A program made the position numbers and the translations under genes. Below are positions 213 to 47,020 of a DNA stretch of 48,572 bases, in pieces. Every line of letters begins with the position of its first letter. Positions within the stretch are counted from its first letter, which is position 1. The notes under the pieces were generated by a model. The model was not told where the DNA came from and searched no databases. It worked only from the letters and a program-made list of their open reading frames with translations. Where the stretch lies: IMG/VR virus record IMGVR_UViG_2706794699_000012, one strand, 5' to 3'. This DNA is from a virus (Duplodnaviria > Heunggongvirae > Uroviricota > Caudoviricetes).

Positions 213-833
213 TTACTCCCTGACAGGGTTCGTAGGCCACTCAATATCAGGTGCAGTTGACGTATCAACACGGTTCAGCAATACCCGATACTTTTTCCAT
301 GCTTCCAGCAACGAGATTTCTTCCTCCGTTGCAATTTCCAGATCTGCAGCATCCTGAAGCGGCGCAATATGCTCACTGGCTACCTGCATCAGGTTGTTTT
401 TTGTTTCTTCCGCCTCCCGGATCCGGAACAGTTTTTCTGCTTCCGTATCCTTCACCCAGGCTGTGCCGTTCCACTTCTGAAACNNNNNNNNNNNNNNNNN
501 NNNNNNNNNNNNNNNNNNNNNNNNNNNNNNNNNNNNNNNNNNNNNNNNNNNNNNNNNNNNNNNNNNNNNNNNNNNNNNNNNNNNNNNNNNNNNNNNNNNN
601 NNNNNNNNNNNNNNNNNNNNNNNNNNNNNNNNNNNNNNNNNNNNNNNNNNNNNNNNNNNNNNNNNNNNNNNNNNNNNNNNNNNNNNNNNNNNNNNNNNNN
701 NNNNNNNNNNNNNNNNNNNNNNNNNNNNNNNNNNNNNNNNNNNNNNNNNNNNNNNNNNNNNNNNNNNNNNNNNNNNNNNNNNNNNNNNNNNNNNTTTTAT
801 GGTCCGTGGTTGTTCACTCATTCTGAATGCCAT
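213..833 (-). CDS. tfa: tail fibre assembly protein (Tfa); interior N-masked
   Basis: C-terminal translation (...[29 protein letters not shown]) is typical of lambda/Rac Tfa; start overlaps stf stop by 1 nt; 484-794 is N. Confidence 0.75.
484..794. other. N-masked block (311 nt) inside tfa
   Basis: Run of n characters. Confidence 1.
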
Positions 834-4527: not shown

Positions 4528-7500
4528 TCAACGAATACTGATGCCGGAAGCCGCTTTTTTGGTCACAATCACCGTACAGTCGGTGATATTGCCTGCCCCC
4601 TGATTGCCTTTCTGGAAAATCTTAAACTCCAGAGTGACGCTACCACCACCACTAGGCATATCAATAACTGCACTGTAACTACCGGGAATGGCACCTTTAG
4701 TTTCTCTGGATGCGATTAATACGCCGTTTTTGCGAACTTCAAAACCATAACCCGTGTATCGCGTGCCTCCCGGGTTATTTCCGCTCCCCGGATCGTCATA
4801 CGCTATACCGTTAAAAATAATGGGCGGAATAATAATCTGGCGGTCAAAGTTATGATCATCGCTGATGGTGACTGTAACCGTACCGTCTGGTGTTTCCGTG
4901 TTACCCCACGTACCGACTTTTTTCGGGAAGGCTTTTGATACAGCTTTAACGAAATCCCCTCTGACCTGGGTCGCCTCCAGCATGCCCTTAATCGTACAGT
5001 TCTGGTTAATCGTGACATTGTTGAGCGTTCCTGAGTTCGCATTCACACTACCACTGATATCCGCATTTTTAGCGGTCAGCTTTCCGTCTGATGTCAGGGA
5101 AAATACCGGAGGACTGCCACCGCTGGTAATGGCGGGGGCTGTCAGGCGCTTCAGGAACACGTCGTTCATGAATATCTGGTTGCCCTGCGCCACAAACATC
5201 GGCGTTTCATTCCCGTTTGCCGGGTCAATAAACGCGATACGATTGGCGGCAACCAGAAACTGGCTCAGCTTGCCTTCCTCCGTGTCCTCCATGCTGAGGC
5301 CAATACCCGCGACATAATGTTTGCCGTCTTTGGTCTGCTCAATTTTGACGCCCCACATCGCATTCCATTTATCGTTAGCGTCCTTCCACTCTTTCGAAAA
5401 CTCATCCAGTCTGCTGGCGTTATCCTCCGTCAGATCAACTTTTTCCAGCAGCTCTTTACCGAGATGGGATTCGGTTATCTTGCCTTTGAAAAAATCCAGG
5501 TAACCTTCCGCATCATCGCTCGCCCGACCGACGGCCTCCACGAATGCCGATTTGCCAACGGTGTTCACACTGCGGATATAAAAGTAATAATCATGGCCCG
5601 GTTTGATATTGATACTGGCGGCTATCCAGTACAGCCCCGCGCCAAGGTAGCGGGCTGTGGTTTCAACCTGCCTGATATCGGTAATCCGCGTTTCCGAGAA
5701 CCAGAACTCAAACTGTACCGTCGGATCATAAACCGCAAGATGCGGCGTGGCAGTTATCTGAAAATAGCCCGGCGTCAGCTCAATCCGCGACGGTGCTACC
5801 GGTGCGGCAATCCTGAACGATACCGACGCCGGATCGCCCTGCTGTCCCCAGGCATTTACCGCCCGGACTGTCAGCGTGTACCGTCCCAGCGCCAGTTGCG
5901 TGAAGCGGTATGTGGTTTCCGTCGTCCGGGCCGTGCTGACCAGCCGCTCACTGNNNNNNNNNNNNNNNNNNNNNNNNNNNNNNNNNNNNNNNNNNNNNNN
6001 NNNNNNNNNNNNNNNNNNNNNNNNNNNNNNNNNNNNNNNNNNNNNNNNNNNNNNNNNNNNNNNNNNNNNNNNNNNNNNNNNNNNNNNNNNNNNNNNNNNN
6101 NNNNNNNNNNNNNNNNNNNNNNNNNNNNNNNNNNNNNNNNNNNNNNNNNNNNNNNNNNNNNNNNNNNNNNNNNNNNNNNNNNNNNNNNNNNNNNNNNNNN
6201 NNNNNNNNNNNNNNNNNNNNNNNNNNNNNNNNNNNNNNNNNNNNNNNNNNNNNNNNNNNNNNNNNNNNNNNNNNNNNNNNNNNNNNNNNNNNNNNNNNNN
6301 NNNNNNNNNNNNNNNNNNNNNNNNNGCCGTCAGGAACACGGCTCACTTTCACCTTCACGCCGTCGGTGACGGACTGAACCTCCACGCTGACCGGATTGCC
6401 ACTTCCGTCAACCAGGCTTATCAGCATGGTACCGGAGGATGGCAGCGTGATTTCACGGTCGAGCGTCAGCGTCCGGGTCTGGCTGTTTACCGCCAGCACG
6501 CGCCCGCCGATGCTGATACCCGCATAGTCATCATCACAGATTTCAATGACATCGCCCGGCACATGGCGAAGCCCTTCTGCGCCCACGCTGAAGTCCACGG
6601 TCTGCGTTTCCAGCAGTTCTGTTTTAATCAGCCACAGCCCGGCGCGGTGTGCCTGCCCCCGGCTGGTACAGCCAAAAGCATCCATCTTCGTGACGTTACG
6701 ACCGTAACGGGCAATGGCCTGCGTATCCTCCACAAGCTCTGTCGCCGTCTCCCAGCCGTTATCCGGGTCAATCCAGTTCACCTCAACGGCATTATGGCGG
6801 TCTTTCAGGGCGCTGAAGCTGTAGCGGAACGGCGCGCCATCATCCGGCATCACCACATTACTGCGGTTATAGGTCCACACCTTATCCGACGGTCGGTCCT
6901 GCACGAACGTCAGCGTCTGCCCGTTCCATACCGGCATACAGCGCATCGCCGAGCAGAAATCACTGAGCACATCCCACGCCTTGCGCTGTGTGGTCAGGTA
7001 CGCATTACAGGTGATGCGCGGCTCCGTGCCGCCAAAGCCGTCCGGCACTGACTGGTCGCAGTACTGGCCGATGACATACAGCGCCCATTTGTCCACATCC
7101 GCCGCACCAAGACGTTTCCCCATGCCGTAGCGCGGGTGGGTCAGCATATCCCACAGACACCAGGCCATGTTGTTGCTGTATGCTGGTTTTAACGTTCCGT
7201 CCCAGATACCGCTGTATTGTCGCGTCTGCGGGTTATAGTTCGACGGCACCTGCAGAATGCGCCCGCGAAGATGATAATTACGACTCACCTGCTGGCTGCC
7301 GAACTGCTCCGAGTCCACCTGTACGCCGACCAGTGCAGTGTTCGGGTAGCACTGTTTCACATCGATGATTTCGGTGTATGACGACCAGAGCGTTTTGTTC
7401 TGCAGCTGGTCTGTGGTGCTGTCCGGTGTCATCCTGCGCATCCGGATACTGAACGGGCGCGGAGGCAGGTTATCCACCACCACCGAGACCAGATACTGCG

Positions 7501-8041: not shown

Positions 8042-8713
8042 TCAGCGACCAATCACCACAACCTGACCACCATCCCCTTCGTCTGCCGTGCTGATCTCCT
8101 GAGAAACCACACGTGACCCCACGCGCATTTCCCCGTACAGAACAGGCAGAACATTACCCTGGGCAACCATGTTATCCAGTGACGAGAAATACGTGTTCTG
8201 TTTGCCGTTATCTGTACTGGCTGCCGTGGGCGTCCTGGCTTTCGGTGCCAGCATCTGCGCCACACCACCCAGGATCATACTGGCCCCTGCTGCATACATA
8301 CCCGATACAGCCGCGGCCCCCAGCCAGCCCACAGGGTTCCACCATGCCACCGCAATCAGCGCCGCACCCAGCACCGCCTGAAACACACCGCCACTTTTGG
8401 CACCCGCCAGACGCGGAACGATGTGGATCACGGCACCATTTGCCAGCGGTTCATTAAGACGGGCAGATAATTCATTTTCGCCTGCATCACGCCCGGCAAT
8501 GCGCACCTGATACCAGCCGTCGCTCAGTTTCTGACGAAATGCCGGGAGCTGTGTGGCCAGTGCCCGGATGGCTTCGNNNNNNNNNNNNNNNNNNNNNNNN
8601 NNNNNNNNNNNNNNNNNNNNNNNNNNNNNNNNNNNNNNNNNNNNNNNNNNNNNNNNNNNNNNNNNNNNNNNNNNNNNNNNNNNNNNNNNNNNNNNNNNNN
8701 NNNNNNNNNNNNN
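8042..8713 (-). CDS. I: tail assembly protein I; 5' part lies in N block, start coordinate estimated
   Basis: Visible C-terminal part ...GVFQAVLGAALIAVAWWNPVGW...VLPVLYGEMRVGSRVV is lambda-I-like; upstream boundary inside 8577-8970 N run, estimated from lambda I length. Confidence 0.65.
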   Translation of the reverse strand, partial: XXXXXXXXXXXXXXXXXXXXXXXXXXXXXXXXXXXXXXXXXXXXXXEAIRALATQLPAFRQKLSDGWYQVRIAGRDAGENELSARLNEPLANGAVIHIVPRLAGAKSGGVFQAVLGAALIAVAWWNPVGWLGAAAVSGMYAAGASMILGGVAQMLAPKARTPTAASTDNGKQNTYFSSLDNMVAQGNVLPVLYGEMRVGSRVVSQEISTADEGDGGQVVVIGR

Positions 8714-8970
8714 NNNNNNNNNNNNNNNNNNNNNNNNNNNNNNNNNNNNNNNNNNNNNNNNNNNNNNNNNNNNNNNNNNNNNNNNNNNNNNNNNNNNNNN
8801 NNNNNNNNNNNNNNNNNNNNNNNNNNNNNNNNNNNNNNNNNNNNNNNNNNNNNNNNNNNNNNNNNNNNNNNNNNNNNNNNNNNNNNNNNNNNNNNNNNNN
8901 NNNNNNNNNNNNNNNNNNNNNNNNNNNNNNNNNNNNNNNNNNNNNNNNNNNNNNNNNNNNNNNNNNNNNN
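8577..8970. other. N-masked block (394 nt) covering the K/I junction
   Basis: Run of n characters. Confidence 1.
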
Positions 8971-24610: not shown

Positions 24611-25478
24611 TTGTCACCCCCATTGATATGCAGGGTGTCTTCTTCCTGTATTTTTCGTGAAGGATTTTTACTGCAGCGTTGTTCCAGGTGACCTGATGGT
24701 GAATGCGTTTATGACTGGCACCCATAAGTGAGATTTTTACGCACGACGGCGCATACATGACGGAGTAAAAACTTTTAACGTAGGTTCCGGAATCCAGATA
24801 CAGCTCGGTCATTCCGCCGCTGTTTTTCTGCGTCTGTTTCTGCCCTAACTGGACAGCACCGATCGTCATAAACAATTCACCACAGCGACCGAGATTCGTG
24901 TACGTATTCACATCCTCGTTAATGCGCCCCATGAATGAGAACGGTCGATCAACCGAACAGATAAAGCTGTTCATTGCCTTGCGTTTCACCCACGAAGCAT
25001 GGCCGCCATTGTCACCAAGAAAATCCCCGCCCTGCGACATAGCGATGGAAAGAGCAGGTATTGATTCGTAGTACGCAAGCATTTCAGAAAGGATCTCATC
25101 CAGTTTCCTTATCGGGAAATAGGCCTGGTCATAGTTGCGATCCACCCGAAACTGGAACTCGTGATAATCATCATCGAGCTGAATGAAGTATTTACACCCG
25201 ACCAGTTTTGCCTGGTCGAAACAGGCATTACGGGCGTAAAAAATTGAGCGGCGGTCACTAAAATTATCGGCTTCGTCAAAACGACTAGCAATATCGGCTT
25301 TGGAAAATACCAGCACCTGTTCACCAAATTCAGCCATGTACTGATGCCGTGTCTTATCTTCATCATCAACAACGATAAAAATTTTCCCGGTATAGCCAGC
25401 ACGACGCAACGTCCGGTAAGTCAGAACTTTGTCCGGTCGCCCGTGAGTCAGAATAAAGGCGCAAAAATCATCACGCAT
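24546..25478 (-). CDS. hypothetical protein with GT-A-like acidic motifs (VVDDED, LDDDY)
   Basis: ATG at 25478 preceded by GGAGGAGGAA and overlapping the ParB-like stop; motifs ILTHGRPD...IFIVVDDEDK...QLDDDY resemble a nucleotide-sugar transferase fold. Confidence 0.5.
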   Translation of the reverse strand: MRDDFCAFILTHGRPDKVLTYRTLRRAGYTGKIFIVVDDEDKTRHQYMAEFGEQVLVFSKADIASRFDEADNFSDRRSIFYARNACFDQAKLVGCKYFIQLDDDYHEFQFRVDRNYDQAYFPIRKLDEILSEMLAYYESIPALSIAMSQGGDFLGDNGGHASWVKRKAMNSFICSVDRPFSFMGRINEDVNTYTNLGRCGELFMTIGAVQLGQKQTQKNSGGMTELYLDSGTYVKSFYSVMYAPSCVKISLMGASHKRIHHQVTWNNAAVKILHEKYRKKTPCISMGVTNDSVFESRVSGSVPDDCTTNR

Positions 25479-30391: not shown

Positions 30392-30988
30392 TTTTCCTCA
30401 CATATGTCATATAGTAAAGGATTATATATACCGTTGTTTTGGACGCTCAAACAGCGAATCAGATCAAATAAAACGCACATTTGTTAACATTTACACAAAG
30501 TCTGCGTGGGATATTCTGAAAGAATATCCATAATGTGGAGAGAATCTATTGAAGTGCATGGTGCCGGGTGCCTCCCGGTGAACAAAATGTTCGTGATACC
30601 TGTCGGCGACAGAAAAGGTTAATGGTATCACCCCACCGCACAGGGGGATTCACCATGCAGGAGTTTTCTTAGCAAACTCACTGCGCGCCCGGCAACTCCC
30701 AACCACATAAAATGCGGAGTTTGTGGCATTTATGCATATAACTCGCAGGAATTATCTTAAAAAACTGATGTCGATCCGGATTAAAAAGAAGCAGGTCATC
30801 ATCAGATGACTGGAAAAAAGGAAAACAAAAAATACTCATCATACAGTTTTGATTGCAGGGATGAGCCTGCTATGCACAATATGCAGAATATAAGCAAGAT
30901 AAAAATATGCAGGCATATTATTTCGGATCTTGTTATTAACACAACCTTTTTAATAATCATTTGGCATACAATAAACCAGCCCAAAAAG

Positions 30989-38783: not shown

Positions 38784-39641
38784 TTACCCCCTGAAGCCTG
38801 GCGGGATCGCACTATCCGGTAACGAGACGGTGTTAACCTGTCGGAGTAACGTCTCAGGTCGAACACCTTTCGGCGCGAACAAGCCCTGGTATTCATTGGC
38901 GATGCTGTGTCGAATCACCTGCTCAGGTGAAAAACCCTGCTGGCGGAATTTTTCCAGCTCCCGTATCGCCCCGTTAGCGCCCTGCTCCGTTCGAATCGGT
39001 TTTCGCAATGCCTGGCGAAATTCAACCCACTCACGCCAAAGCGAGACAGAAATCCAGTTCGGCAAAGCAATATCCAGAGGGTCAAACTTTTTGACACCTC
39101 GATTCCCCCGGGGGGGATTTAGGGGGGGATCTGTTTTTAGATCTTTATCTGTATCTTTATTAGTTGCCTTTGTGTTGACATCATGTTCAAACACCACTTC
39201 AACATCTGTTTGAACACCTGTTAAATTTCTCTCTTGTTTTGTTTGAACATCTGCTTCCTTTCTGCTTCTTCTGGCCTGAACAGATGCTTTTCCTGCGGCT
39301 GATTTTTTGGTTAATTTTTCCCTGACTGATGCCAGATCTTCCTCAATCCGAAGATGCACCCATTCCTCGCCGTTATCGCAAAAAAACTCCTGCAAGGATG
39401 GTTCAACATCAGCCCATCGCTCGTTAGTCAGACGGGCAATTTTTGCCAGCCTGTTTTTAGGTATTGGCTTTCCTGTTTGCCAGTAATTGAACATCAGCAA
39501 CAAATACGCACCATGCTCCTCTGCTGACAAATGCATGGTGTCAGCCAGGTAATCAGCTATGTACAGTTGCATGTATGGTAATGCGGCCATAATTGCCCCG
39601 TATGATGCTGCCCGGTGGCTTAGAATAAGCACAAACAGCAT
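38784..39641 (-). CDS. ydaU: replication-associated protein YdaU-like (DUF1376)
   Basis: 285 aa between ydaT-like and DnaC-like genes. Confidence 0.65.
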   Translation of the reverse strand: MLFVLILSHRAASYGAIMAALPYMQLYIADYLADTMHLSAEEHGAYLLLMFNYWQTGKPIPKNRLAKIARLTNERWADVEPSLQEFFCDNGEEWVHLRIEEDLASVREKLTKKSAAGKASVQARRSRKEADVQTKQERNLTGVQTDVEVVFEHDVNTKATNKDTDKDLKTDPPLNPPRGNRGVKKFDPLDIALPNWISVSLWREWVEFRQALRKPIRTEQGANGAIRELEKFRQQGFSPEQVIRHSIANEYQGLFAPKGVRPETLLRQVNTVSLPDSAIPPGFRG

Positions 39642-39653
39642 GGAAACTTTTGC

Positions 39654-40076
39654 TTAATGAACAATGACAGAATCGTCGGAAGACCCGCCGCCGCTGAAAT
39701 GCGCTTTCCGGTAAACGGCTTGGACTGCATCATCATGCGCATCAATTGCCGTACTTAACGCTTCCTGCGCCGCCAGTAATGCACGGCGTTCCAGGGTATC
39801 GAAGATGCAGAGTCGGTGACGCAGCTCGCGCGGAAGGATTGCCAGAATTGCTGGGATCAGCTTCTGAATTTTTTCTCTTTGCGTTTTCGTTTCACCTTTC
39901 AACCAACGGTGATAGATATTCTGCTGATTATTCCAGTCCTTGCCTGGTACCAGGGGCAATTCGCCGCCCCCCTGGCGCAGATATTCTTCAGTAATGGCAT
40001 TGGCTACCCATGCCTGCCCTTTTTCGGCTGCCAGGGCTAACAACACTGACTCGATGTGCTCATGCTTGATTTTCAT
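39654..40076 (-). CDS. ydaT: YdaT-like protein (partner of cro-like YdaS)
   Basis: 140 aa, 4-nt overlap with ydaS stop. Confidence 0.7.
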   Translation of the reverse strand: MKIKHEHIESVLLALAAEKGQAWVANAITEEYLRQGGGELPLVPGKDWNNQQNIYHRWLKGETKTQREKIQKLIPAILAILPRELRHRLCIFDTLERRALLAAQEALSTAIDAHDDAVQAVYRKAHFSGGGSSDDSVIVH

Positions 40077-40327
40077 GAATCAACTCCCATCAGCTTTTTC
40101 GTAGTAGTTTTATTTCTGCCAATAGTTAAAATTACATCAGCAGAAAATAATCCGTTTGATGCATGAGCGATTTTTTCAGCGTAATTTGTTTCGCCGGTAT
40201 ATTCTGTGCGAGGCAATTTTCCGTTATCCATCCATTTGTAGATTGCTCTTTGGCTGACACCACAAACGTCGGCCACAACAGAAACGCGAACAGTTTTGAT
40301 TACATCTTCAAGTGTTTTCTGGTTCAT
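40073..40327 (-). CDS. ydaS: Cro-like HTH protein YdaS
   Basis: Start MNQKTLEDVIK (ATG at 40327) preceded by GAGGGTG; HTH ...VCGVSQRAIYKWMDNGKLP; divergent from repressor gene. Confidence 0.7.
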   Translation of the reverse strand: MNQKTLEDVIKTVRVSVVADVCGVSQRAIYKWMDNGKLPRTEYTGETNYAEKIAHASNGLFSADVILTIGRNKTTTKKLMGVDS

Positions 40328-40406
40328 ATCACCCTCACAATGTGAACTTTGAGTACATGCTATAACAGAACTGACAGTACATTCAAGAGTGAATATCATT
40401 GAACTT
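40328..40406. promoter_or_regulatory. divergent immunity-region promoters/operators between cro-like ydaS and repressor
   Basis: AGTACAT at 40352-40358 and 40376-40382; palindrome tcacaatgtga at 40335-40345; candidate -35 TTGAAT / -10 TATAGC toward ydaS; candidate CTGACA / TATCAT toward the repressor. Confidence 0.5.
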
Positions 40407-40826
40407 ATGGTTCATGAAGATAAAGCGCGTAAAGAGTTCGCCAGTAGGCTTGCGCTAGCCTGTGAAAACGCTGGTTATGAACAACATGGAAGGCAGGCAG
40501 AAATTGCCCGTCGAATGAAATTAACACCAAAAGCGGTTAGCAAATGGTTTAATGGCGAAACAATTCCTCGCCGAGAGAAATTAAGGGAATTAGCAACACT
40601 CATTGGAACAACACCAACCTATCTTTTGGGAGAGGATACAGAAGAAAGTGGACAGGTACGTTTCTATCAGGAGTTAAATCCAAGACAAAAAATCATCATT
40701 GACCTTCTGGACGAGCTCCCTGACAGTGAGACAGATGAACTTTTAAAAACTCTTGAGGAGAAAAAACAGAAGTACAATGCAATTTACGAAGAGCTAGCAC
40801 GAAAGAAAAAACAAAAAGCCTCTTAA
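40389..40826 (+). CDS. racR: prophage repressor, cI/RacR-like (XRE-type HTH)
   Basis: HTH QAEIARRMKLTPKAVSKWFNGETIP; divergent from cro-like gene; GTG at 40389 or ATG at 40407 without SD (possibly leaderless). Confidence 0.65.
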   Translation: MNIIELMVHEDKARKEFASRLALACENAGYEQHGRQAEIARRMKLTPKAVSKWFNGETIPRREKLRELATLIGTTPTYLLGEDTEESGQVRFYQELNPRQKIIIDLLDELPDSETDELLKTLEEKKQKYNAIYEELARKKKQKAS

Positions 40827-41116
40827 ACCAGCATAAATCCGGTAGCGTCCCCCTCCGGGTTTGTGCTTCACTTTATCCCATCTCATTTTTTTACACACAA
40901 AATGTACTTATAGTACTTTACATCAATGAACACAAAGTACATTATATACCTACCAACCCACCCCGCCCCACAGAACGCAGGGCAATACTTCGAGTTACCA
41001 GGCAGTGGTCAGGGGTTAAGTAGCCAGCCCGAGGCGTATGAACATGACGGCAGGGTTCAGATTTTGCAGTGCAGCAGGTTTCAGTTCCGCCACCCGGCGT
41101 TAAGGGGAGAGATAAG

Positions 41117-41251
41117 ATGGTGCATTACGAAGTAGTTCAGTATTTGATGGATTGTTGCGGTATCACTTACAACCAGGCTGTGCAGGCTTTACGCAGCAAC
41201 GACTGGGATCTCTGGCAGGCAGAAGTCGCTATACACAGCAACAAGATGTGA
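41117..41251 (+). CDS. ydaF: small protein YdaF-like
   Basis: MVHYEVVQYLMDCCGITYNQAVQALRSNDWDLWQAEVAIHSNKM; ATG preceded by GGGGAGAG. Confidence 0.5.
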   Translation: MVHYEVVQYLMDCCGITYNQAVQALRSNDWDLWQAEVAIHSNKM

Positions 41252-41261
41252 GATTCGCAAA

Positions 41262-41417
41262 ATGCAAAAAATCGACCTCGGCAACAACGAATCCCTGGTG
41301 TGCGGCGTGTTCCCCAACCAGGATGGAACGTTCACTGCCATGACGTATACCAAAAGCAAAACATTTAAAACCGAAACTGGTGCGCGCCGATGGTTGGAGA
41401 AGCACACAGTAAGCTAA
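41262..41417 (+). CDS. ydaG: small protein YdaG-like
   Basis: Hand-translated 51-aa ORF MQKIDLGNNESLVCGVFPNQDGTFTAMTYTKSK...; not in track (under 60 aa). Confidence 0.5.
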   Translation: MQKIDLGNNESLVCGVFPNQDGTFTAMTYTKSKTFKTETGARRWLEKHTVS

Positions 41418-41902
41418 CGATTAAAACGTCTACTCCTGCTGTTCCAGAATAACTTCATAAAATGGGAGTATTTTTCGGTGACGAGATAATAAGAACAGTT
41501 TGCGCTATCACTCTGATGTTGAATGATGCCCTTCCGTTCTAATTTTTTCATAACCGGGTTACGGCAAGGAGAAGTGATAATAAGATTTCCTGTTTTAAGG
41601 AAATCTTTAAATACAGCGATTTCTTTCTCAGATAAACGAAGCAATACTCGTTGCTCTGGTAGTAATGAATAATGCTTTTGAATATGTGCTCGCAATCTTG
41701 AGAAGGAAATGGCGACCACGAAAGAAAAGGCAAAAACGATAATCTGAAAGAGCCAAGGTATTTCAGTATAAGCATTGAATGCGACAGTAAACTCTTTCGG
41801 TATCAGCCAGAGAGTGAGACCAAAAATGATAATCGTATACATAAGTATTTCGAGTGGCTCGTTAGCAAAAAGTTTCAACAATGGAGTAAATACATCCAAC
41901 AT
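41414..41902 (-). CDS. sieB: superinfection exclusion protein B
   Basis: Start MLDVFTPLLKLFANEPLE... gives 162 aa matching Rac SieB as recalled; membrane helices. Confidence 0.85.
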   Translation of the reverse strand: MLDVFTPLLKLFANEPLEILMYTIIIFGLTLWLIPKEFTVAFNAYTEIPWLFQIIVFAFSFVVAISFSRLRAHIQKHYSLLPEQRVLLRLSEKEIAVFKDFLKTGNLIITSPCRNPVMKKLERKGIIQHQSDSANCSYYLVTEKYSHFMKLFWNSRSRRFNR

Positions 41903-42343
41903 ATCAATAACTCTCAACTGTAAGGGTATTGAAATGTTAACACAAGCTCTCGCTGTAGGGGTATAGCCGAGACCACCGAAGCCCGGAGGTGGTGAAATAA
42001 AACCGGGCACAACACGAAGGCGCATTTCCGATATCCATAAAGAGTCGGTCTTGTCTGTTAAATTTAAATGGTGGGAGTGCGCCTCCGGTTGTAAATAACG
42101 ACATTGCTGTGTGTAGTCCTGGCGGCATCAGTTTTTTTCTTGAAGTTCGGCTGATGTCCGCCCTTTTTAAAGTGAATTTTGTGATGCGGTGAATGCGGCT
42201 AAGCGCACGTGGCACAGTTAAAAGTCATGTTAGTCCTTATTGGTTTGGGTGGGAAAGCCGACTGTAATTGTTAACTGGTTGCAGTCACCTGGAGGCACCA
42301 GGCACCGCATCAACAAAGTTCATTTGTAAAAATGGAGATAATT

Positions 42344-42565
42344 ATGATTGCACATCACTTCGGAACTGATGAAATACCACGTCAGTGTGTGACTCCTGGC
42401 GATTATGTTCTTCATGAAGGCCGGACATATATTGCCTCGGCAAACAATATTAAAAAGCGAAAACTATATATTCGTAACCTGACCACAAAAACATGCATTA
42501 CTGACCGCATGATTAAAGTCTTCCTCGGTCGTGATGGTTTACCTGTAAAGGCGGAGTCATGGTGA
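42344..42565 (+). CDS. kilR: cell-division (FtsZ) inhibitor KilR
   Basis: [35 protein letters not shown]..., 73 aa, ATG preceded by GGAG. Confidence 0.85.
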
Positions 42566-46819: not shown

Positions 46820-47020
46820 ATGGAGGTGTTCATGTATAAAATTACCGCCACTATTGAAAAGGAAGGTGGCACTCCTACTAACTGGACAAGATATTCAAAA
46901 TCTAAACTAACGAAATCAGAATGCGAAAAAATGCTCTCAGGTAAAAAAGAAGCAGGCGTTTCCAGAGAGCAGAAAGTAAAACTGATAAATTTTAATTGCG
47001 AGAAACTTCAGTCCTCGTGA
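46820..47020 (+). CDS. ydaC: small protein YdaC-like
   Basis: MEVFMYKITATIEKEGGTPTNW...; GGAGGTG upstream; alternative start at 46832. Confidence 0.5.
   Translation: MEVFMYKITATIEKEGGTPTNWTRYSKSKLTKSECEKMLSGKKEAGVSREQKVKLINFNCEKLQSS

Follow-up and report, generated by a model that had tools for sequence, protein, structure and literature searches.

The stretch of DNA analysed here, a Caudoviricetes record of 48,572 nucleotides (IMG/VR record IMGVR_UViG_2706794699_000012; hereafter the window), contains at positions 40083-40950 a region that is very probably the immunity switch of a Rac-like lambdoid prophage, with operators and DNA-binding proteins of the HK022 type. Judged from its sequence, the region adds a new member, so far unannotated, to the known HK022/933W family of operators, and its mild oddity is a chimeric repressor. 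An earlier note on this DNA had proposed a divergent repressor/cro immunity switch with AGTACAT repeats flanking the repressor gene. This proposal was backed by homology of the HK022/933W type, by footprinting across related immunity regions, by the cassette boundaries and by a promoter scan. The elements that it had named (AGTACAT, a palindrome, TGAACTT, CTGACA-N17-TATCAT and the repressor ATG at 40407) were all present where it had placed them.

The 79-bp region between cro and the repressor gene contains AGTACAT at 40352 (+) and 40376 (+), and the heptamer recurs 3' of the repressor gene in both orientations, at 40902 (-) and 40936 (+), which confirmed the earlier description; the fifth copy in the window is at 25336. 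Enrichment across the window, which had been suggested as a check, was not found (5 copies versus 4.22 expected; at least five were reached in 41 of 100 shuffles), and a clustering test and a weight-matrix test were used in place of this non-significant result. Local clustering was strong, as four of the five copies were located inside 591 bp (40352-40942), for which the chance with at least four of five random sites is approximately 3e-5. Of the 11 TGAACTT copies in the window, those at 40343 and 40400, in the cro/repressor intergenic region, were found to be the left half-sites of two longer sites, OR1 and OR3. AGTACAT and TGAACT(T) are thus alternative half-site variants of one 17-bp operator and not two independent motifs. 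The meaningful unit is the 17-mer rather than the heptamer, and five such pseudo-palindromes with the consensus ATGWACT-N3-AGTWCAT were identified, three in the intergenic region (OR1-OR3) and two beyond the 3' end of the repressor gene (OL2 and OL1). The right and left operator sets that the earlier note had expected were therefore both observed, and AGTACAT held as a half-site of the operator motif, although not as its complete unit. From their sequence, the five sites are the putative operators of the repressor, and both actual binding and the order of occupancy are predictions.

A position weight matrix (PWM) was built from seven HK022 sites only and scanned over the 48.5-kb window. The five best scores belonged to OR1-3, OL2 and OL1 (14.2-19.3 bits), and the next best score was 12.6 bits. 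In random sequence, 0.17 hits are expected at or above 14 bits, with a maximum of two in 300 simulations, and the next-best hits in the window (33526, 42725, 38149 and 32963; 10.5-12.6 bits) were in the random range, which has a mean maximum of 12.4. The HK022 sites are located between cro and cI (GTGAACTTATGGTTCAT, CGGAACTGATAGTACAG and TTGAACTTATGGTTCAA, with the cI ATG in the spacer of OR3) and 3' of cI (ATGTACTATTGGTACTT and ATGAACTTTAAGTACAT). The window and HK022 share this 17-bp operator family, the 24- and 33-bp centre spacings in OR and the 24-bp spacing between OL1 and OL2. In particular, OR3 differs from HK022 OR3 at the last base only and carries the ATG at the same position, and both half-sites of OL2 match HK022 OL2 while the central spacer differs. 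The same OR spacings were found for the annotated OR1-3 of the 933W-type phage 24B, whose GenBank record places these three independently annotated operators on the same alignment columns as the window sites. The passage of PMC8053113 that cites Carlson & Little 1993 gives two HK022 distances, 53 bp between OL2 and OL3 and approximately 300 bp from OR to an extra operator beyond it, and the HK022 sites that we located reproduced both.

The sites were then compared in the OR of eight immunity regions of HK022 specificity, namely those of the window, Tritos, a metagenomic relative (repressor 89% identical), HK022, Klebsiella phage 2b, Salmonella phage ABTNLsp11242 and two Salmonella prophages, and in the OL of six of the eight. 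The core half-site columns were 85-87% invariant, compared with 26% for the columns between sites, and the central triplets of the OL sites were 0% invariant. OL1 was conserved in HK022, Tritos, L012, ABTNLsp11242 and the Salmonella prophage L009. In the window, each of the ten half-sites carries A-C at positions 4 and 5, which are the positions read by K42 and K46 of the 933W repressor, two residues essential for its specific binding (PMC3317979); both lysines are kept in the window repressor. The region thus has three 17-bp sites in an intergenic region of less than 100 bp that overlap the predicted promoters PR and PRM, a match to the HK022 operators, and a second operator set over an early promoter, with two OL sites versus three in HK022.

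The N-terminal domain of the repressor is a helix-turn-helix (HTH) domain (Pfam HTH_3) that is homologous to that of HK022 CI. Residues 4-102 showed 47.5% identity to HK022 CI (tblastn E = 1e-22), and residues 1-73 showed 50.7% identity to the 933W-type CI. The recognition helix, TPKAVSKWF, differs from TPKAISKWF of HK022 in one conservative residue. The N-termini align from Met1 (MVHEDK, MVQQK and MVQNEK), which identifies the ATG at 40407 as the start. The DicA protein of Qin has an N-terminal domain of the P22-c2/DicA type, whereas that of the window repressor is of the HK022 type, and the operator specificity is therefore assigned to the HK022 type and not to the P22-c2/DicA type.

In contrast, the C-terminal domain of the repressor is unlike that of HK022 CI, which carries an S24 LexA-like peptidase and cooperativity domain (Ala-Gly site and Ser/Lys dyad). 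No PF00717 hit for an S24 peptidase domain was obtained in the repressor, and no counterpart was present in the alignment with HK022 and 24B CI; the last element of the 139-residue protein is a helical hairpin. The AlphaFold2 model (mean predicted local distance difference test score of 81) revealed a five-helix HTH domain, a disordered linker (residues 75-86) and two further helices (residues 92-103 and 106-138). The NCBIfam DicA profile (PRK09706) matched residues 29-137 over profile positions 20-132 of 135 (2e-15), with a score of 56.8 bits that lies below the curated family cut-off of 101, and a BLASTP comparison with K-12 DicA showed 29% identity over residues 30-137, the C-terminal domain included. 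On this sequence evidence, the repressor resembles DicA in its architecture without being its orthologue. As in the window, DicA and the short repressors of the Gifsy type are proteins of approximately 135-139 residues that consist of an HTH domain and a two-helix module (LPxSE...), lack the Ala-Gly site and the S24 domain, and are divergent from a cro-like gene; DicC is unrelated to the window Cro. The C-terminal module is shared at 62-89% identity with relatives from Salmonella and E. coli, and its motif, xPRQ+xLLxLFxxLPxSExDxLLKxLEEKKxxYxxLYxEL (residues 75-139, window 40629-40826), also forms the C-terminus of small proteins in at least 39 clusters (50% identity) whose N-terminal HTH domains are unrelated (P0044-P0077). 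The motif has no Pfam model and corresponds to the C-terminal region of DicA. Searches of solved structures and folds gave matches to the N-terminal HTH domain only (P22 c2, SinR, ClgR and others) and nothing informative for the C-terminal domain. As a side observation, one E. coli protein of 123 residues (P0013) is a fusion in which Cro (...EYTGET) is joined to the repressor (...NGETIPRR), apparently by deletion between short GET repeats, with loss of OR and both N-termini.

Without a LexA-like S24 domain, the switch would not be inducible through RecA-stimulated self-cleavage. DicA and the Gifsy repressors are not cleaved through RecA; antirepressors relieve them, and for DicA the antirepressor is Rem (PMC10448788). 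Tritos is a plaque-forming phage that carries an identical repressor (100%; DNA 96% identical), which is expressed in the lysogen 24-fold above background (PMC9928086). Ciprofloxacin strongly induced Gally and Cyrano, two of the four other prophages of LF82, with Perceval inconclusive, and Tritos was not reported among the induced LF82 prophages (PMC9928086).

The minus-strand gene had been labelled ydaS in the earlier note, and this label needs correction, because the product is a Cro protein of the HK022 type: its identity is 59% to HK022 Cro, 44% to Cro of the 24B/933W type and only 19% to K-12 YdaS. A Shine-Dalgarno sequence for cro, GAGG, is present on the minus strand at 40333-40336.

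A promoter scan of the plus strand from 40200 to 41200 called PRM and PL only. The -10 element of PRM ends 7 nt 5' of the ATG at 40407, where no Shine-Dalgarno sequence is present, and a leaderless repressor mRNA is the natural prediction from this arrangement. The lambda cI mRNA is leaderless. HK022 has the same PRM layout, and the 24B record annotates the start of pRM 1 nt before the cI ATG. The PaaR2 mRNA was found to be leaderless by 5' RACE (PMC8630535), and the K-12 racR promoter PracR3 is a further leaderless precedent (PMC9638921). The leaderless transcript of the PRM type suggested by the earlier note was thus supported by the scan, by the missing Shine-Dalgarno sequence and by precedent in relatives, and it stays a prediction. 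The predicted cro promoter PR sits where HK022 has TTGACT...CATAAT in the alignment; the scanner missed it because its -10 element lacks a T at position 6. No terminator was called 3' of the repressor gene. Between PL and ydaG (40952-41116), no structured leader RNA, put-like or other, was detected (fold z-score +1.16; no Rfam hit).

The window represents a Rac-like lambdoid prophage of non-K-12 E. coli, and positions 39600-41500 are 99.9% identical to several complete genomes. A blastn comparison with K-12 Rac showed 99.2% identity up to 40082 and 99.4% identity from 40951, with nothing alignable between them. One end of the cassette lies within the first few codons of ydaT, immediately beyond the stop codon of cro, and the other lies just past the PL -10 element and OL1. 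As these junctions fall just outside OL1/PL and cro, the operators travel with the repressor and cro. The junction at 40082/40083 is on the last base of the YdaT box, which is the sole position of the box where K-12 differs (ATGATT...). The cassette is carried by 1049 of 5426 complete E. coli genomes (approximately 19%) and is 95-100% conserved in approximately 1030 of these carriers. In the Salmonella prophages L009 (4553-5220) and L010 (4588-5255), a HigB-toxin/HTH-antitoxin pair is located between the short repressor gene and OL/PL, and the OL pair is intact despite the inserted higB-like cassette. The toxin-antitoxin pair parallels paaA2-parE2 behind paaR2 in CP-933P.

We compared the region with other known switches. 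HK022 has OL3, OFR, cII and nun, whereas the window has a Rac-type backbone with ydaT in place of cII and without OL3, OFR and nun. The 933W/24B region has the same operator frame with three OR and two OL sites, likewise without OL3 (PMC3317979, PMC5977221), the conserved K42 and K46, and OR3 over the cI start. The differences are the half-site (CGWACT in 933W, TGWACT in the window), residue 41 (Ser in 933W, which reads position 2, and Pro in the window repressor) and the S24 domain of the 933W repressor, which is RecA-cleavable. The PaaR2/YdaS switch of CP-933P (O157:H7) also resembles the window: its repressor is short, CI-like and lacks a peptidase motif, and the switch is bistable, carries ydaT 3' of cro and has repeats in both the intergenic and PL regions (PMC8630535). 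Unlike the window, its operators are 18-bp palindromes with GTTTAGTAA half-sites at four sites, and its repressor gene is transcribed together with a toxin-antitoxin operon, of which there is none in the window cassette.

From the observed sites, statistics, conservation, homologies, cassette boundaries and promoter matches, we infer the following mechanism. The repressor, presumably a dimer formed through its DicA-type helical C-terminus, would bind the ATGWACT-N3-AGTWCAT sites. At OR1 and OR2 it would block PR and keep cro-ydaT and the replication genes off, and at OL1 and OL2 it would block PL and keep ydaG, ydaF, kilR, recET, xis and int off. Bound at OR2, the repressor would probably stimulate PRM, by analogy with 933W, with a start at the ATG or one base before it; at high concentration it would fill OR3 over the start codon and stop its own production. 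The repressor of 933W, on the same operator frame and without OL3, first activates PRM and then represses it (PMC5977221). The HK022-type Cro would lock the lytic state through the same sites, and YdaT, as a CII analogue, would act at the box over the ydaT start. If relief occurs, its expected source would be an antirepressor or stochastic switching.

Several points weigh against this interpretation. The PWM test is not fully independent, because the HK022 sites were located with the pattern first seen in the window; this circularity is mitigated by the agreement with the 24B annotation and the published HK022 distances. The scan found no equivalents of HK022 OL3 and OFR at or above 14 bits in the window. 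The -10 element of PR (TATAGC) is weak and was not called by the scanner. The centre of OR2 is at approximately -33 from the predicted PRM start; in lambda, the OR2 centre is at -42, and PRM activation is accordingly suggested only by analogy with 933W. The C-terminal domain differs from the one in HK022 CI, which makes cooperative binding of pairs at the conserved 24-bp spacing uncertain. As for the means of induction, neither a Rem homologue nor a LexA box (strict CTGT-N8-ACAG) was found in the window, although an unrelated or trans-acting antirepressor could still serve.

These points were set against other explanations of the same sequence. The AGTACAT copies could be a chance cluster, or AT-rich promoter sequence without operator function, and the missing window-wide enrichment together with a motif chosen post hoc by eye speaks for such a view; nevertheless, the tight clustering of four copies, the coincidence of the 17-mers with the five top hits of the HK022 PWM and with annotated operators of the 933W type, and cores that stay invariant in diverged relatives while the flanks drift leave it almost no probability, and we regard it as refuted in practice. 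It is just as improbable that the region is a RacR/YdaS-type switch with RacR-type operators, as in K-12 Rac and as the ydaS label of the earlier note would imply. That switch shares with the window its prophage position and neighbours (ydaT, ydaU, ydaG, ydaF, sieB, kilR and recE), the same YdaT box with YdaT as a CII analogue (PMC11879457), and a layout with a leaderless promoter and three operators in the intergenic region, the third of which covers the repressor ATG (PMC9638921). The proteins and sites themselves are different: the repressor matches RacR over 33 residues only (36% identity), neither RacR nor YdaS is related in sequence to the window repressor and Cro, and the K-12 operators, WTAGGC-N3-GCCTAW (PMC9638921; sites located in K-12), are unrelated to those in the window, with no DNA similarity within 40083-40950.

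Another explanation would make the operators relics of a full-length HK022-like CI, with the short repressor decayed or inactive and the prophage possibly cryptic and no longer bistable. The S24 domain that confers cooperativity on HK022 CI is absent, Rac is cryptic in K-12, and in the near-identical prophage FORC_081 (L001 5091-6042) the annotation gives the ydaU, dnaC-like and DUF1627 genes beside the cassette as frameshifted or partial, so that at least some carriers of the cassette are decaying, cryptic prophages. We still consider this explanation improbable, because the C-terminus shows no truncation and consists of a conserved module of the DicA type that recurs in at least 39 protein clusters, the identical repressor is expressed and maintains lysogeny in plaque-forming Tritos (PMC9928086), and the cassette is highly conserved among its carriers. 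A narrower alternative concerns the perfect 5-1-5 inverted repeat TCACAATGTGA (40335-40345) in the cro leader, which the earlier note had listed beside the AGTACAT and TGAACTT repeats and which might serve a different regulator, for instance YdaT or Cro, as an extra operator. The repeat is kept in Tritos and partly (TCAC..GTGA) in L012, and K-12 YdaT binds the racR-ydaS intergenic region (PMC11879457), but 53 palindromes of this form occur in the window against approximately 47 expected, and the repeat is absent from HK022, Klebsiella phage 2b, Salmonella phage ABTNLsp11242 and the Salmonella prophages L009 and L010. Furthermore, its right arm is the left half-site of OR1, and it is unlike the YdaT box. 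An operator role for this palindrome, slightly less credible still than the relic explanation, was rejected on frequency and poor conservation, and the palindrome is probably due to chance.

The HK022-type reading assigns operators, promoters and specificity to a cassette present in approximately 19% of complete E. coli genomes, including O157:H7 strains, E. coli W and the LF82 phage Tritos, which current records label only as a "helix-turn-helix protein", and it sets the YdaS label right. On this reading, cross-immunity is expected with HK022-type phages and heteroimmunity with K-12 Rac, and the region provides a clean case of an immunity-cassette swap at exact operator boundaries among Rac-like prophages. 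The chimeric repressor is a natural experiment on whether cooperativity is set by the operator spacing or by the C-terminal domain, and on induction outside the SOS response. We tentatively raise the possibility, which we consider doubtful, that the DicA-type module is a portable alternative to the S24 domain that was grafted onto a domain of HK022 specificity while the 24-bp geometry of the OR and OL pairs was kept. If so, a small module alone would give dimerisation as well as pairwise or long-range cooperativity, the switch would be blind to RecA and dependent on an antirepressor, and a Rac-like prophage found in approximately one-fifth of complete E. coli genomes would make its hosts immune to HK022-type phages. 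None of these findings overturns current understanding. Operators of this kind are already known from HK022 and 933W, and the switch is an ordinary lambdoid one.

Table 1. Features of the immunity region and its surroundings; positions are those of the window.
Feature	Position	Strand	Sequence or size	Remarks
Immunity cassette	40083-40950		868 bp	OL/PL, repressor, OR and cro; replaces racR-ydaS of K-12 Rac
Repressor gene	40407-40826	+	139 aa	HK022/933W-type HTH N-terminal domain, disordered linker, DicA-type two-helix C-terminal domain
cro	40073-40327	-	84 aa	HK022-type Cro; best PHROG match phrog_35
OR1	40342-40358		GTGAACTTTGAGTACAT	PWM 17.6; aligns column for column with HK022 OR1 and annotated 24B OR1; over the predicted PR start region
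OR2	40366-40382		CAGAACTGACAGTACAT	PWM 14.3; between PR -35 and -10, overlaps PRM -35; aligns with HK022 OR2 and annotated 24B OR2
OR3	40399-40415		TTGAACTTATGGTTCAT	PWM 19.2; repressor start codon straddles the spacer and right half-site
OL2	40902-40918		ATGTACTTATAGTACTT	PWM 19.3; abuts/overlaps PL -35; half-sites invariant in six relatives, central N3 variable
OL1	40926-40942		ATGAACACAAAGTACAT	PWM 14.2; between PL -35 and -10
PRM (predicted)	40371-40399	+	CTGACA-N17-TATCAT	10/12 matches (promoter scan); +1 at about 40406/40407
PL (predicted)	40917-40945	+	TTTACA-N17-CATTAT	9/12 matches (promoter scan); would drive ydaG-ydaF-(kilR-ydaE-racC-recE-recT...)
PR, cro promoter (predicted)	40359-40386	-	-35 TTGAAT (40386-40381), 16-nt spacer, extended -10 TGtTATAGC (40367-40359)	Read by hand
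YdaT box	40066-40083		TTGATTTTCATGAATCAA	Perfect box; spans the ydaT start codon; pattern match; predicted site for the CII analogue YdaT
ydaT	39654-40076	-	140 aa	Gene in the CII position; Pfam YdaT_toxin 1.8e-11; PHROG 163 CII-like activator 3e-37

The genes around the cassette are arranged as in K-12 Rac. On the minus strand, ydaV, ydaU and ydaT are followed by the small HTH gene identified above as cro, and on the plus strand the HTH gene of the repressor is followed by ydaG and ydaF; beyond ydaF lie sieB (minus) and then kilR, ydaE, racC, recE, recT, ralR, xis and int (plus). The ydaT gene, whose DNA is 99% identical to that of K-12, is translationally coupled to cro through an ATGA overlap. 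The sequences TTGATT-N6-AATCAA and ATGATT-N6-AATCAA bind YdaT in CP-933P and K-12 Rac (PMC9986795, PMC11879457).

A few minor observations were also made. In K-12 Rac, RacR-type sites (TTAGGCATAGCCTAT and TTAGGCATTACCTAT) were found around a near-consensus promoter, TTGACA-N17-TATAGT, 3' of racR (L002 2631-2668, minus strand, equivalent to window 40900-40950); this pair constitutes an OL/PL-type set, and the RacR literature examined covers the racR-ydaS intergenic region only. Upstream of kilR in the window, a DicF-like RNA at 42108-42163 (+) scored 39.1 bits, under the gathering score of 48, and is followed at 42165-42351 (+) by an STnc100-like match of 35.5 bits, under 47. The two sit where the small RNA kilS is annotated in K-12, and a full STnc100 hit is present at 30502-30688 (-). 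Runs of N (masked or unknown sequence) occur at 484-794, 5954-6325 and 8577-8970. Finally, an IS009 RNA was located at 256-454 (-), and the RalA antitoxin small RNA, part of the RalR/RalA type I toxin-antitoxin pair, was located at 46838-47016 (-) (Rfam RF02694, 225 bits).

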